A DNA stretch of 64,000 bases. It comes from Catajapyx aquilonaris (taxonomy: Eukaryota). The notes beneath the pieces are model-generated. The model had not been told where the DNA came from and made no database searches. It was given only the letters and a program-made list of their open reading frames with translations. Every line of letters starts with the position of its first letter. The first letter of the stretch is position 1. The DNA is taken from assembly GCA_000934665.2 (NCBI GenBank), contig KZ538311.1, positions 62,001 through 126,000 on the forward strand, read 5' to 3'. The translations under genes and the position numbers were made by a program. Positions 35,342 through 42,027 of this stretch are shown here, one piece after another.

Positions 35342-36779
35342 AAAGAAAAAAAAGAGTTAGGCAGCCTCTTAATCGGATGTACAGTGACGGGGCTTGCACA
35401 GTCCGACTAATATTTGTACATAAAGGAAACTTATAGACTGACCTAGTGAAAAAAAAGGGGGGGAATGACCAAGTTTTAGGCGGCTTTAGGAGAAAATTGT
35501 TCCATGCGGTGAATTTTTGGCCTGAAGCTTTCAAAAAGTCCATGTAAAGAAAAGCTATGCGTGTCTTTTTTTTAAGTTGTCCATCTTTGTACAGTGAAGT
35601 TTTAAAGGCGCGACTTGTTCCTCAATTAAGTTTCGAGTCGACACTGGCATTGCATGTTAAAGAAAATGTCTGTGTTAGATTAAGTTTTCCAGATTTGTGT
35701 TTAAGAGGACGTTTTCTGTTTAAATTGTTTGAGTTTAAACGAGGTGAATAATGTATTTCCAGTTACCAAAGACGAAGGAGCGATTCACGCTTCCGGTGCA
35801 GTTATTTTAGAAAGTTAACGAAGAGCTTTAATTTGTCCTTCTTGAGTAAAATGTTGCCAACTCAAGGTGCTTTTTTTCCTGAAATACTCAGAGTAGGTGT
35901 ACATCTAGGCCATTTTAAAAAAATCTGTTCAGTAAATTTCTAGGTGCTGCTATCCTGCTTGGTTTTTTCCCATAGGCAGAACAGGTGAATAATTGTTAAG
36001 TGCATTTCATAGAAATGGAAGTTTTAAATGTGATGCCAGATTGCACCTTTTATTGTGTCACGCCACCCTTGTGCAAAAGTGGTATTTTTTACTCTTTGGC
36101 AACAACGGACTGGTAACGGCAGCAACGAGTTAGCAGTATCTGTGTCTATAGATTTAAAAAATGGCCAAGTAAGTAGTCGGTGTTTACAGGAATATTAAGA
36201 AAATAAACTGAAATTGCTCACGTTTTGGGTCGACATGATGAACAAATCATGAGGTTCAGTGAGGTAAAGTAGCATTCTCGTGTTGACAACTGAGGTGAAA
36301 AGCTCGTTTTTTTTATTATTTGAGGCTAAAGTTCTGTCACTGTAATAATAATAATAATATTGAAAAGAGATTAGGGAAGAGGTCTGGTCACAAGAGGAAT
36401 CATGCATTTGCAGGAGCCTTGAGAATGAAAACGCTAGTAATAAATGTGCCATACATTCAGTGTGAGCGAAGTGCTTGTCAACGTTGTTGTTTTCCTTTTT
36501 CTTGCGTGGCTAACACTTGTTTAAGTTTGCCACATTTTCACTATGATGCGTACTAAAGGAAAGACTGGAAGTTTGCAGAGAGACCTTTCTATAGTGCTAA
36601 TGTCGTACTTGGAATCACACTATTCTGATACCTTTTTTTTTTGCCATTGCTCTTGCTACCATATTGATTTTTCTATCTCCCTCCACTTTGTTGGCAGCAG
36701 TGCATGTGAAAGTATACTTGGATTTACAATTTATATAATCAATATTGTCCTGACAGAATAAATGAGTTGTTTAGAGAGT

Positions 36780-38784
36780 TCAGTCCTCTTCATTCTTCCC
36801 ATTCTCATGGTGGTTTCCATTCACCTTCCCGTTGAGCGAGAGCTTGTCATCACGGTAACCATTTGGGTTAAGGGTTTGCCAGTGCCAGAAGTCACGGCCT
36901 GTAAAAGCAACATGCAATCTAAGTAAATGGCATCTGAAATACTAATGGAGTAACTACTAAAAGTCTTTAAATTTAACAGTACATGTCCCGTCATTACTTT
37001 TACTTGCCTTTCTCTACTATTTAAGCCATAAGCATCCCTACAATGCAGCAGAAACCCTAGTTAAAGTGTAATGTAATTCAAAGGGCTGTAAAATTTGTTA
37101 CGCTTGACGTACACCCATCACCGCAAGGAAAGAAAGTCATTGGCAGAAGAAATAACTTACACATCAGCTCCAAAGAGTACCGGGCATTCCAGCCAAGCTC
37201 ATTTTGGGCCAAGGCTGCATTAGCATACATGGAAACAATATCCCCCTCTCGTCGCTCCCTGATCTCGTAGGGAACACTGGCACCCGTCACCTTTTCAAAG
37301 GTTTTCACCAACTGCAGCACCGACACACCCTTCCCAGTGCCCAAGTTGTACGTCTGAAAAAAATGCAATGGAGAGAAATGCCATACTTACACATGTCAAC
37401 TACATCAAATTGGGGCTTCCACAAGAGTTCATTAGCGGCCTGCGTGGCTTCGCAAACCAAGGTGTCCACATCTCCCACGCGGCGGGGGCCCCAAGTGTAC
37501 GGGATACATGTCCCGGTAGTGGCCTCAAATATACTTATGAGGTTCAGAACTGACAGGCCAATACCCAAACCCAAGTTATATACCTGCAGACAAGGGGTGG
37601 AAATGGAGAGGTGCTTCCCAGTGTTTGCGCAATGGGGCTGCTTACCTTAAAACGCTGGTGATCCTTGAACAGCTTGTTGAGGGCGGCCACGTGCCCTGAG
37701 GCCAGGTCCATTACGTGGATGTAATCCCGCACCCCAGTTCCATCCTCAGTGTCGTAATCCCCTCCGAATATGACCAGCGACGGCTTCTTTCCTAGGGCTA
37801 CCTGAAGAAGCAAAGTGGGATCACACTGCCAGTCTAATATACAAGCAATAAATACCTGCGCAATGTATGGCATCAGGTTGGTGAATGCTTTGGTAGGATC
37901 CTCCCCAATGCGGCCGGATGGATGTGCTCCAACTGGATTGAAGTAGCGCAGTGCAATGATGTTCCACTGCTTCTCCGCAGCACTCAAGTCCTTCAGCATC
38001 TCCTCAATAAAATACTTGGTCCGTCCATACACATTAGTGACATTGCCCGTCGGGTGACCCTCCGTGATGGGGAGAGTGGCCGGGTTTCCATAAACGCAGC
38101 AGGAACTGGAAAACACCAGCTGGTAGCATCCGCTTGCCTTCATGGCCTCCAGCAAGTTGATAGTACCAGTCACATTGTTCATGTAGTACATCAGCGGAAG
38201 CTGCATAGACTCTCCCACTGCTTTCATGGCAGCAAAGTGAATCACGCAGTCAACCGGGTGCTGCAATTAAGTTCTACATGTCAACCATTTGGTAGTACGG
38301 ACCTCTCTCAACATTTTGAATAGTGGGCAGAATCTGTGAAATTAGTTATTTTATTAATGAAAAAGCAACCAGCTATTCCATGCTGAAATTAACAGGTGGT
38401 TATAAAATTAATGCAAACCATGGTACCCAGTATTTGTCAAGGTCTTGTTGATGCTTCACTGTACAGTTACACGGTTGAGAGGTCAAGGCTTCTACTTTCT
38501 ACACAAAACATGCTTTTGTTATACCCCCCAAAAATAGTACACACCTTCTGAAAAATGTCGGTGAGACTCTTGGAGTCGAGCAGGTCACACTGGTAGAAAG
38601 TGACCTTCTTTCCAGTGATCTCCTCGACCCTCTGGAGACTAGGAGCCACTCCTCCACCGTCGACACAGTTGGCAAAGTTGTCAATGGCCACAACATGATA
38701 CCCAGCATTCAACAGCTCGCAAACACAGTGGCTTCCGATGTACCCAGCACCACCAGTCACAAACACAGTCTTCTGACCCGACAT
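36780..38784 (-). CDS. GALE: UDP-glucose 4-epimerase, 370 aa, with two alternative versions of exon 4
   Basis: Exons 38784-38545, 38260-37856, 37801-37646, [37583-37391 OR 37353-37161] and 36898-36780; 1113 nt with either exon 4. Motifs [37 protein letters not shown] (YxxxK), [41 protein letters not shown] probable non-coding first exon ends at a GTAAGT donor at 39158. Confidence 0.96.
37161..37353 (-). CDS. GALE: GALE alternative exon 4b (canonical-like copy)
   Basis: tttcag|ACG...ATG T|gtaagt, 193 nt, phase 0/1, encoding [64 protein letters not shown]. Confidence 0.92.
37391..37583 (-). CDS. GALE: GALE alternative exon 4a (divergent copy)
   Basis: tgcag|GTA...ATG T|gtaagt, 193 nt, phase 0/1, encoding [64 protein letters not shown]; no stop or indel. 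Confidence 0.8.
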
Positions 38785-39938
38785 CACTAATACGCACCTG
38801 AAGAGTTAAAAATGCTGACGTGAGTAAAGGGAATGTGAACAATCCGGCCCGGACGAGTCTGGCAGGCGCCTCTTGATAAATATTTGGGAAGCCTCTCAAA
38901 AGGATTTGACATTGACCTTTTTGCTGCTGTTTGGTCCGCTGCACACACACCGGCTGCCTAAGGGGCAATGGCCATCCCGTCCATTAGCAAAAGGGGCTAA
39001 TGACCGTCGCTTTTTCAAGGGCGATGCTACCTCTCGTGAAAATATTTGCCAGAGAATGGACCGAAAATTTCATCCTTGGGCAAAAGTGACGTCAAAAACT
39101 AGTCACCAAATGATGTAAGATCACTCAAGGCTAATTTGCATAGCAGTGTCCTACTTACAACAAGCCGAATGATGAGTTGTCTGTTTTCCTTCTTCTTCTG
39201 CCCTTGTGCCAAATGCAGTGCTGTGGACAAACGTGTGCAGCCAACCAGACACAGATGATGATGGCAGGCCACTCACACAGCGTCTGGTGCTAGACTGCTA
39301 GCCAACAGTGTTTTCCTCCGTTTTGTGTGGCAGGCAAGCCACCCCCAAGCACCACAATGCCCTTGGAGGACTGCTGGCGAAAGGGGGGGAAAAAGGACCA
39401 CGGTTTTTGTCACGGTCGAAATAATAACAGGGGCCCTCAGTGGAAAAAAGTCATGTGAAAACGTGACTCAATATTTGTTTAATTACGTGACTGTACAAAT
39501 ATAACATTGAGTGGAATTTTCGTCCTGTTATAGTTACTGCTAATAAGTTAGCAGTAACTAGCAGTGAGATGAAAAATTCATTGTTTCTAATGCAAACGTG
39601 CAATAAAGAACCGGTTTGTTTAAAATTGCGCCAGAATTGTACGTGACTCATCCGCCAGAAATGTTGTCTGCGCAATAGAGAAAGTACAGCCTGAATTTAA
39701 TGACAGTACAATGATTAAAAGGCATTTTATTAACCAGTAGTTATGATCAATCAGTCAATTTGCAAACACGTTTAAATTTGCCTACTTTTTCTCCAGTGAA
39801 GCTCAGTGGTCGGGAGGTGTCGCCGTCTGTGGCCAACTGTGCCAACTACTCATTTAGTGCACAGTCTACATACGTTGCATCATTACACGTGCTGGCAGCT
39901 GTTTAATTGTTTGTCCAGAGTTTCTGGATTTTAAAAAA

Positions 39939-42027
39939 ATGTCCGGACCTGTGGAGTTCCAGGTTGTGGTGATGGCTGCGGGGAAGGGCTCCAGGATGTC
40001 AGAGGTCACAGCTTCCAGACCCAGGTGCCTCATACCCGTGGCCAACTATCCGCTGCTGTGGTACCCTCTCAGTATGCTCCAGAGGAATGGGTTCCAAGGT
40101 TAATTGTTGTGCAGAGCTTTCCAATTTGTGGGGTACTAACATGGCCAAGTTTTTTTTTTCCAGAGGTGATTGTGGTGGTGCCGGAGTCGGCCCAGAGCGA
40201 GGTGGCTGCCCTCCCTAAGAAGTATTCCCTGGCGCTGAAGCTGGACGTCGTGCCAATCAGTACCAACACCGACTGGGGGACGGCTGATTCCCTCCGGCAC
40301 GTACAGGACAGGATTAAAGTAAATGTGGATTAAACATCAGGAAAACAAATCATTTTTGATATAATTAATTCCAGACGGATGTGATTGTGGTGAGCTGCGA
40401 CCTTATCGCGGACATCAACCTGGCCGAGGTGGTCCTTCCGAGGCGAATTCATGGCGCGTCAGTCACTGCTGTCTATTCAAAGGTGGATCTACATCTGAAT
40501 AAGGTTCAAGTGCCTGGACCAAAAACCAAGCACAAGAATGGTACGCATTTGTAAAATTAAAAGTGTGGAAAGAAAAATTATCCATGCCGCTTTTCAGAGC
40601 GTGATTTGGTTGGGATTGACCAGAACTCTTCTCGGTTGGTTTACCTCACGTCCGAAGCGGACATTGAGGACGAGACTGTCTACATTAAAAGATCTGTACT
40701 TCGTCGCTACCCGCATGTGCGCTTCCAGACTGGTCTTTTGGATGCGCATCTTTATGTGCTGGCAAAGTGGGTGTGTGATTACCTCGCACAGAACCAATCA
40801 ATCACTGCCTTGAAAGGTGAATTGATGCCGTACCTGGTGCGCAAGCAGTTTTCAAAGCCGAAGGTGGAATCGCCGTCTAAGCCTACTGTTGCATCGTTGG
40901 TGTCGGAATCATTTGTTTCCGACATATTCAGCTTCTCAAAAGAGGATGAGAGAGCCGTTAGAATCCGAGAGGCTTCGTCCTGGACCGATCACAGTGGTGA
41001 CATGGACGGTGCGTATCACTCAGAGCAGATACGCTGTTATGCGCATGTGGTCCAGTCAAAATGTTTGAGAGCCAACACACTGCCTGCTTACTGTGAGGCC
41101 AACCGACTTGTGTCCAAAGACTGGGTCGATGTAATAGAAGGTGGGGTCTTGCGCCTCATACATCCGTCTAGTCAGGTTATGAGTACTCAGATTGGTCCGG
41201 ATTGCTGTGTGGGTGAATCGACAATCATAGCAGCAAAGACGTCAATCAAGCGATGCATCATAGGAAGCCATTGCAAGATTGAGGAGAAGGTTCGCCTGAC
41301 TAACTGCATTCTCATGGACAATGTGGTCGTAAAGGAAGGGTATGTTTATTATTACAAACAATAGAATATGAAGGCTACAGTGGTTAATATGGTCATCGTT
41401 TCATTGTAAATATATTAAATTGCGTGACATACTTAACTGCAATTAATATCTTCTGCTACAATGTGTACCGTATTATCACTTATTGAAAGAGAACTACAAT
41501 GAAATACCTGGAGCTAAAAGGTCATTTAAAAAAAGTGCTTCGTGCCATTATTCGGATAAATTTTTTTTTCTGAACTTAATCCGTAGTGTCATTAACATTT
41601 CAAAAGGGTCATGTTAGTTTTAATAGAAAATGTTATTTTTTCCAACTTTGTTCCTCTCTTTACAAGGTCGGTTCTGCAGGGATGTTTAGTATGTGCTAAT
41701 GCCAATGTGCACGAGCTGTGTGACTTGAAGGATTGCCTCGTTGGTGGAAATCACACTGTTCATTCTGGAAGTAAGTAGTGAGCTGACAAGGGAACCTCCT
41801 GAAAATGAATGTCAATTGGCAAATCATGACTGAATGCAAATTATTCTTCATGGTACGAGGAGACAAATTGCAAATGATCTTGATTTGCCCACCAGTTTTC
41901 ATTTTCAGAAGATTCCCTTGCAAGATTTATGCTATTTAGGCACAAGTACTTTCATGGCCCTTTTTTTTTTGCAGCTCGAAGCAGCAATGAAATTCTGGTG
42001 GATGTTGATCGAATGATGGAGATTTGA
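39939..42027 (+). CDS. EIF2B3: Translation initiation factor eIF2B subunit gamma, 6 exons, 459 aa
   Basis: Exons 39939-40098, 40164-40318, 40375-40540, 40598-41339, 41667-41770 and 41975-42027; total 1380 nt. Pyrophosphorylase-like N-terminus EFQVVVMAAGKGSRM...LIPVANYPLLWYPL, GTADSLR, VVSCDLI, LLDAHLYVL, LKGELMPYLVRKQF, a C-terminal left-handed beta-helix (IKRCIIGSHCKIEEKVRLTNCILMDNVVV), ending RMMEI. Confidence 0.93.

Follow-up and report, generated by a model that had tools for sequence, protein, structure and literature searches.

Can one gene for uridine diphosphate (UDP)-glucose/UDP-galactose 4-epimerase (GALE) supply two different enzymes, by choosing between two copies of a single exon? 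The question is raised by a stretch of 64,000 nucleotides (nt) of Catajapyx aquilonaris DNA (assembly GCA_000934665.2, contig KZ538311.1, positions 62,001 to 126,000 of the forward strand), which we call the window and whose own numbering is used throughout. On its minus strand, at 36780-38784, lies a five-exon gene whose boundaries were read from the sequence and which, by its sequence, is an arthropod-type GALE. This enzyme is usually taken as a single-product housekeeping enzyme. Among the types of alternative splicing, that by mutually exclusive tandem exons is familiar. As we read the locus, the fourth coding exon of GALE was in all likelihood duplicated in tandem long ago, and the two copies (4a and 4b) are probably used as mutually exclusive exons. 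A conserved pair that exchanges the strand determining specificity would allow two isozymes to be made from one gene.

Exon 4a, the divergent copy, occupies 37391..37583 and exon 4b, the canonical copy, 37161..37353, both on the minus strand. Each is 193 nt long (64 residues in 4a), starts in phase 0, is open in the frame of exon 3 and ends one base into a codon that exon 5 completes. A pyrimidine tract and AG stand before each copy and GTAAGT after it; with a slash at the boundary, acceptor and donor read ...tgtctgcag/GTATAT and ACATGT/gtaagt for 4a, and ...tttttttcag/ACGTAC and TGATGT/gtaagt for 4b. The spacer between them (37354..37390, minus strand, 37 nt) contains only the 4a donor gtaagt, the 4b pyrimidine tract and cag. 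A preliminary description of this DNA had proposed two exons of 193 nt each, sharing a phase and having canonical splice sites and open frames, and its coordinates all hold in the sequence.

The likeness of the two copies goes well beyond their outline. The gap-free protein alignment put forward in that description (27 of 64 residues identical) was reproduced, and none of 100,000 shuffled versions of 4b reached 27 identities (maximum 14). A BLASTP comparison of 4a with 4b gives 26/60 identities with no gaps at an expect value (E) of 5e-19. In nucleotides the copies agree at 97/193 positions, distributed over first, second and third codon positions as 35/64, 42/64 and 19/64. Because third positions are near random and the protein has nonetheless been kept, the duplication should be old and both copies constrained as protein, which fits the earlier proposal of an old duplication with both copies intact. 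Queried separately, 4a and 4b match the same residues of solved GalE structures. Exon 4b is closest to human GALE chains (E ~1e-18), its residue 2 corresponding to human residue 267, and 4a is closest to bacterial GalE structures (best E = 1.3e-10, with human GALE at 3.4e-6). In these structure alignments exon residues 35, 38 and 42 correspond to human Arg300, Asp303 and Cys307 and to Bifidobacterium Arg292, Asp295 and Cys299. The alignments agree with the proposal that both copies hold the RRxGD UDP-binding motif (human Arg300/Asp303), and they place the differing residue at the human Cys307 position, as had been said: codon 42 of both exons is TTG (Leu, 37460-37458) in 4a and ATG (Met, 37230-37228) in 4b.

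Similar length, compatible splice sites and reading frame, and homology are the marks of mutually exclusive exons named in an excerpt of Pillmann et al. 2011 (PMC3228551); 4a and 4b have equal length (193/193 nt), the same splice pattern and phase, and homology. These features support the view that they form a tandem-duplicated pair built as mutually exclusive exons are. For a further mark, that each mature transcript holds just one copy, the support is indirect.

The reading frame bears directly on whether both copies could be used together. Exon 3 (37646..37801, minus strand, 156 nt) runs from phase 0 to phase 0, matches Pfam Epimerase at E = 1.6e-5 and offers one donor, at 37646, common to 4a and 4b; the last coding exon, exon 5 (36780..36898, minus strand, 119 nt), joins either copy and ends in the stop TGA at 36782-36780. 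In scripted joins, exon 3 + 4a + exon 5 and exon 3 + 4b + exon 5 are both open to the normal stop and encode 370 residues each. With 4a and 4b included together, the frame shifts and a stop falls 23 codons into 4b; when both are skipped, the last exon is read out of frame. Because the exons are 193 nt long, taking both or neither breaks the reading frame, so that a productive messenger RNA should contain one copy.

The stop in 4b also counts against two other accounts of the locus: that the second copy is an artefact of assembly or of a recent duplication, or that 4a and 4b are both constitutive and form an internal repeat of the protein. What speaks for the latter is a pair of UniProt gene models, from Timema tahoe (A0A7R9FNI6, P0161) and T. 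genevievae (A0A7R9JQV7, P0162), in each of which a single protein contains the two segments. These models, named 'UDP-N-acetylglucosamine 4-epimerase' and 455 and 481 residues long, carry a 4a-type and a 4b-type segment in tandem, with extra C-terminal residues after 4b. They keep the frame only by cutting the 4a segment short ahead of a complete 4b: that of T. tahoe stops after 59 residues, that of T. genevievae at RRVGDVDSL. Both resemble annotation compromises, and to us they have the appearance of annotation errors in which a mutually exclusive exon pair was merged. Superposition of structures finds one copy of the exon-4 segment in the GalE fold, and the 97/193 nucleotide identity does not fit a recent or assembly duplicate. 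Either of these accounts is, in our judgement, extremely improbable. The pair bears on annotation too: some models (Timema) fuse both exons into an over-long protein and others show one isoform.

How would the choice of a single copy be enforced? The four introns of GALE measure 284, 54, 62 and 262 nt, and the 37-nt spacer lies below the shortest of them (54 nt); going by the known steric-hindrance mechanism, it would be too short for removal as an intron. A too-short intervening intron, and a frame shift followed by nonsense-mediated decay, are both described as mechanisms for two-exon mutually exclusive clusters in PMC6071210, and we infer by analogy that both may act on GALE 4a and 4b. Two genomic open reading frames (ORFs) from other organisms, P0011 and P0013, start in a 4a-type exon and continue, after 5 or 8 additional codons, into a 4b-type exon. 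Since these frames read through, 4a and 4b should be adjacent in those genomes too, the spacers being in frame and 17 and 26 nt long. Where only 17-37 nt separate the exons, the 4b branch point must sit very close to, or upstream of, the 4a donor, and at 17 and 26 nt it cannot have its usual place within the spacer. In this respect the GALE cluster would illustrate, in compact form, how two exons can exclude each other through a very short spacer (17-37 nt). The textbook two-exon mutually exclusive cluster is that of alpha-tropomyosin exons 2 and 3. GALE is like such clusters in having two homologous exons of equal length and phase, a short spacer (37 nt) and an exon length that is not a multiple of three; it differs in that 4a and 4b are known here from sequence, and not from observed splicing.

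If 4a is a working exon, it should have been kept in other organisms. Among longer proteins (37 candidates, threshold E <= 0.001), the search with 4a had a single match, Daphnia carinata XP_057367809.1, annotated as 'uncharacterized protein LOC130688820 isoform X1'. Over the exon-4 segment this protein shows 61% identity to 4a, and one stretch of 12 residues matches exactly. With the Daphnia segment as query, a further cluster of seven members was found. Five of the seven (334-357 residues, complete or nearly so) have a 4a-type exon joined to the last exon and come from contigs of 1.2-1.4 kilobases (kb); the other two are 84-residue exon-1 ORFs running into the intron, on contigs of up to 45 and 192 kb. 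Because short spliced products occur there beside intron-containing gene copies, the simplest reading is that a 4a-type messenger RNA exists in the organism behind this cluster. A metagenome scan with P0010, aimed at these transcript contigs, gave 80 loci, all of them GalE relatives at 47-54% identity; the contigs sought were not among them, and the loci were left out of what follows.

A wider scan with 4a, over 1.84 billion representative proteins at E <= 0.001, gave 1191 matches. Among the best 150, which were inspected, 30 have a 4a-like pattern after RRxGD, 26 of them with Leu. Most 4a-like matches are short ORFs ending in ...MC-K/E followed by junk, as expected from read-through of a GTAAG or GTGAG donor. 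The same 150 also contain two long repeat proteins, P0021 (876 residues, 10 matched stretches) and P0109 (462 residues, 6 matched stretches), which have no relation to GalE and were set aside as spurious. A profile built from 20 4a-type fragments returned 106 matches at E <= 1e-5 among 7999 scored candidates, of which 12 were retrieved; among these is 'UDP-glucose 4-epimerase isoform X2' of Folsomia candida, in which a 4a-type exon is present. Further transcript-like spliced products of the 4a type are P0163, P0165/P0272 and P0081. Taking the spliced products of relatives together, 4a alone is present in P0003, P0010, P0163-P0165 and P0081, and 4b alone in P0027, P0178 and others. The Cephus, Diachasmimorpha, Macrosteles and Phthorimaea proteins are of the 4b type only, and their genomes may still hold 4a.

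The preliminary description had named a 4a that was decayed or absent in relatives, together with a lack of 4a-containing transcripts, as an outcome that would count against the pair. Decay or absence in relatives is not what was found, since the 4a-type exon is conserved in Daphnia, Folsomia and Timema and occurs in spliced products of relatives. The same comparison addresses the possibility that in Catajapyx aquilonaris itself 4a is an unused relic (a pseudo-exon) and only 4b is spliced in. Exon 4a is indeed the more divergent copy, with the weaker match to GalE structures (E = 1.3e-10 vs 1e-18) and the longer branch in the tree described below (0.62 vs 0.17). Its frame is nonetheless open, its phase is correct, its splice sites follow the AG/GTAAGT consensus, and every family-invariant residue is retained. 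Moreover, it is 58-66% identical to 4a-type exons of other organisms (the wider range is 45-66%), at a depth where the constitutive exons reach only 68-74% and third codon positions of the two copies are random, a level that would not have been kept under neutrality. A relic is, on this balance, very unlikely. For exon 4b the identity to the 4b exons of three other organisms is 67-70%.

The pair of types also appears to be older than the lineages that carry it. Both exons are present in four organisms (the window, P0011, P0013 and Timema), among which 4a resembles 4a at 45-59% and 4b resembles 4b at 67-83% identity. For exon 4a of the window, the 4a-4a values (45-59%) exceed the 4a-4b values (34-47%) in three of three comparisons. 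In a maximum-likelihood tree of 43 segments, 27 4a-type rows fall on one side of a branch with a Shimodaira-Hasegawa-like approximate likelihood-ratio test (SH-aLRT) value of 92, and eight of the nine arthropod 4b rows, including that of the window, form a clade (SH-aLRT 95). The named carriers comprise a branchiopod, a springtail and a stick insect, and so the duplication most likely took place before the split between Branchiopoda and Hexapoda. That split is several hundred million years old. Horizontal gene transfer was considered as a separate origin of 4a, given that the 4a profile scores some bacterial GalE proteins as high as insect 4b exons. It was rejected: in length, phase and place within the gene 4a is the equal of 4b, and the tree puts neither copy inside the bacterial sequences.

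Several points weigh against a conserved, mutually exclusive pair. The protein searches brought up no product of the species itself that contains 4a, and among the retrieved proteins no single species supplied both a 4a-only and a 4b-only spliced product, though the RefSeq labels 'isoform X1' and 'isoform X2' imply that more isoforms exist. The taxonomic spread of 4a rests on three named genera (Daphnia, Folsomia and Timema). The segment tree has 64 columns and came from a quick search, and its 4a rows were picked by similarity and labelled by a motif over positions 42-44. Exon 4a has changed faster than 4b, and relaxed constraint is another possible reason for this. A search for inverted repeats over 36780-37810 found four short pairs (9-15 nt, 80-100% complementarity), judged to be at chance level, one of which pairs the spacer (37372-37381) with the last intron (37006-37015). 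With these points counted, we still hold it very likely that 4a and 4b are a real, conserved exon pair.

What appears to be new is that GALE has a mutually exclusive exon pair whose swapped piece carries the specificity residue. The literature searched, from which the supplementary tables of genome-wide surveys of mutually exclusive exons (which might list the gene) were excluded, yielded no prior description of alternative or mutually exclusive GALE exons. The earlier statement that nothing of the kind was described for GALE stands for that literature and not for the databases, where the 4a-type exon is already present in isoform models that RefSeq generated automatically for Daphnia carinata and Folsomia candida.

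What, then, would the swap change? The two products would be 370-residue enzymes, identical but for 64 residues that correspond to human 266-329, a stretch within the UDP-sugar-binding domain. For the 4a-type isoform of Daphnia, an AlphaFold2 model has a mean predicted local distance difference test (pLDDT) score of 91.4, with 92-98 in the swapped segment, and superposes on human GALE 1ek6_B with a target-normalised template modelling (TM) score of 0.98 and a root-mean-square deviation of 1.1 A; the 4a version is predicted from it to be a normally folded epimerase. We compared 27 4a-type segments with nine arthropod 4b-type segments position by position. At 18/64 positions the same residue is at least 80% conserved in both types, including RRxGD, ELxW and the final Met. 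The Arg and Asp of UDP binding are constant, RRxGD being invariant in 27/27 4a-type and 9/9 4b-type segments. Just three positions combine at least 80% conservation inside each type with a difference between the types: position 39 (Val in 26/27 of the 4a type, Ile in 9/9 of the 4b type), position 42 (Leu in 26/27, Met in 8/9) and position 44 (Cys in 27/27, Ala in 8/9), the near-invariance of Leu42 and Cys44 in the 4a set being partly built in by the labelling motif, which tells against giving it full weight. All three lie on the strand directly after the RRxGD UDP-binding motif, which reads Ile-Val-Ser-Met-aromatic-Ala in 4b and Val-Asp-Thr-Leu-(Val/Ile)-Cys in 4a. The types differ in other places too, with the 4a type given first: Leu/Ile against Thr at position 6, Leu/Ile against Val at position 10, a hydrophobic residue against Glu/Asn/Asp at position 36, Val/Ile against an aromatic residue at position 43, a variable residue against Gly at position 54, Pro against Ser/Ala at position 57, and Asp against Ser/Thr at position 60.

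Beside these counts stands one 4b-type exon, P0027/P0030, with Ile in place of Met at the specificity position (RREGDIISIYSD). Because of this Ile, the canonical 4b exon should also vary at the specificity site in some lineage.

Position 42 is the one at which the GalE family is known to set its choice of sugar. According to the excerpt of PMC5349592, the gatekeeper is Cys307 of the human and Tyr299 of the E. coli enzyme, the substitution Y299C lets the E. coli enzyme accept UDP-N-acetylglucosamine and UDP-N-acetylgalactosamine (UDP-GlcNAc/GalNAc), and exchanges of Ser and Phe in Neisseria GalE (Ser299/Phe300) switch specificity likewise. The excerpt of PMC6668579 adds that C307Y abolishes the UDP-GalNAc activity of human GALE, and that a Bifidobacterium paralogue with Leu290 is predicted to be like group 1. 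Group 1 GalE enzymes, which accept UDP-glucose and UDP-galactose (UDP-Glc/Gal) only, have a bulky Tyr, Phe or Leu at the C5 pocket, and Trypanosoma brucei is among them (passages of PMC6668579 and PMC10482301). Two premises of the preliminary description are thereby confirmed: the human Cys307/E. coli Tyr299 position as the site of specificity (PMC5349592, PMC6668579), and a trypanosome GalE with Leu at the gatekeeper that is restricted to UDP-Glc/Gal (PMC10482301, PMC6668579). In Drosophila, an excerpt of PMC3359975 reports that both activities of GALE are present and both needed, with different developmental roles.

Against this background, 4b would give a general-purpose enzyme and 4a an enzyme with an altered sugar pocket, most likely restricted or biased to non-acetylated UDP-Glc and UDP-Gal, as in the Leu-bearing trypanosome enzymes. 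The residue at position 42 of 4a is of the bulky group 1 kind (Leu, in 26/27 4a-type segments), and that of 4b (Met) is bulky as well. What speaks against a switch of specificity here is that, in the published rule, the contrast lies between small (Cys/Ser) and large (Tyr/Phe/Leu) residues, and Leu and Met are both large. A difference in specificity does not follow simply from this pair of residues, and the canonical Met form is itself unusual; in the literature searched we found no characterised GalE with Met at the gatekeeper. Compared with the human, E. coli and Neisseria enzymes, GALE of the window belongs to the same family and fold, and its 4a/4b difference aligns to human 307 and Bifidobacterium Cys299. 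In those enzymes, however, the alternatives sit in separate species, alleles or paralogues, whereas 4a and 4b lie in one gene and would be chosen by splicing; their residues are Leu and Met, unlike the small-versus-aromatic contrast that has been tested. The GalE proteins of Trypanosoma brucei and T. cruzi (group 1a) have Leu at the aligned position, as do 26/27 4a-type exons, and overall likeness is low, the 4a-type model being 36% identical to 1gy8. The trypanosome enzymes also have a large His in the C2 pocket according to the excerpt of PMC6668579, whereas GALE here keeps an Asn common to both isoforms.

These considerations give weight to a different account, in which both isoforms are made and accept the same sugars, and the swap tunes kinetics, equilibrium, stability, temperature or redox behaviour, or tissue-specific regulation. 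The differences between 4a and 4b span the whole exon (positions 6, 10, 36, 43, 54, 57 and 60), beyond the gatekeeper, and the invariant extra Cys of 4a would suit the redox option. Both exons retain all invariant UDP-binding and structural residues (18/64 positions), the gatekeeper residues are bulky in both isoforms, and the C2-pocket Asn lies in a constitutive exon and so is common to both (for the role of this pocket, see the excerpt of PMC6668579). Two things fit this account less easily: the type-specific conserved positions (39, 42 and 44) cluster on the C5 sugar-pocket strand, and in the enzymes of human, E. coli and Neisseria specificity is switched by single substitutions at position 42 (excerpt of PMC5349592). 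We give unchanged sugar acceptance a serious chance, somewhat short of even.

Our own preference leans slightly towards isoforms that differ in some catalytic property of the sugar pocket, judging from where the conserved differences fall. That this property is the acceptance of UDP-GlcNAc/GalNAc is a reasonable but tentative suggestion, and the odds are against it. The broadest version, that many pancrustaceans split the two essential activities of GALE by splicing, with a 4a (Leu/Cys) enzyme for UDP-Glc/UDP-Gal only and a bifunctional 4b (Met/Ala) enzyme that makes UDP-GalNAc, is doubtful. Were it true, the choice of exon would set the balance between the UDP-Gal pool and the UDP-GalNAc pool and the drain on the UDP-GlcNAc used for chitin, by tissue or moult stage, and a splicing switch several hundred million years old would lie within the active site of a Leloir-pathway enzyme. 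A conserved pair of this kind would be a natural experiment, directly open to testing, on the way in which the C5 pocket determines the choice of sugar.

A parallel among metabolic enzymes is pyruvate kinase PKM, whose exons 9 and 10 are mutually exclusive and swap a ligand-binding segment, the consequence being allosteric regulation. Like PKM, GALE is a housekeeping metabolic enzyme with a tandem-duplicated exon pair in which one structural segment is swapped, giving isozymes from one gene. The enzyme is another one, and PKM belongs to the vertebrate lineage; the consequence is known for PKM, whereas for GALE the effect is a prediction.

The rest of the gene conforms to a GALE throughout. Exon translations match Pfam Epimerase and GDP_Man_Dehyd. 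Coding exon 1 (38545..38784, minus strand, 240 nt), located by tblastn with P0003 and P0010, begins with the ATG at 38784-38782, matches both families and contains GGAGYIGSH, the GxxGxxG motif of nicotinamide adenine dinucleotide (NAD) binding. Exon 2 (37856..38260, minus strand, 405 nt), also placed by tblastn, matches Pfam Epimerase at E = 3.8e-28; it holds the catalytic Ser/Tyr/Lys region SSS...YGRTK, in which SSS and YGRTK supply the catalytic Ser and the YxxxK motif, and the C2-pocket Asn in TNLMPY. The catalytic columns are invariant in alignment A2 (S132/S133, Y159 and K163 in P0003 numbering). The constitutive exons share 68-74% identity with all named arthropod proteins and 54% with a nematode protein, and a search of the ESM Atlas with exon 2 led to generic epimerase clusters only, most of them bacterial.

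Two observations concern the flanks of GALE. Upstream, head to head with the gene and ~1.15 kb from its start codon, an ORF at 39936-40103 on the plus strand (start MSGPVEFQVVVMAAGKGSRM) matches Pfam NTP_transferase (E = 2.4e-6). The two may share a bidirectional promoter region, and an eIF2B-gamma-like protein and a sugar-nucleotide pyrophosphorylase-like protein are possibilities for what this ORF encodes. In the 3' flank, at 36195-36509, stop-free frames contain runs such as YYYYYY (minus strand) and NNNNN (plus strand), which points to a short AT-rich trinucleotide repeat.

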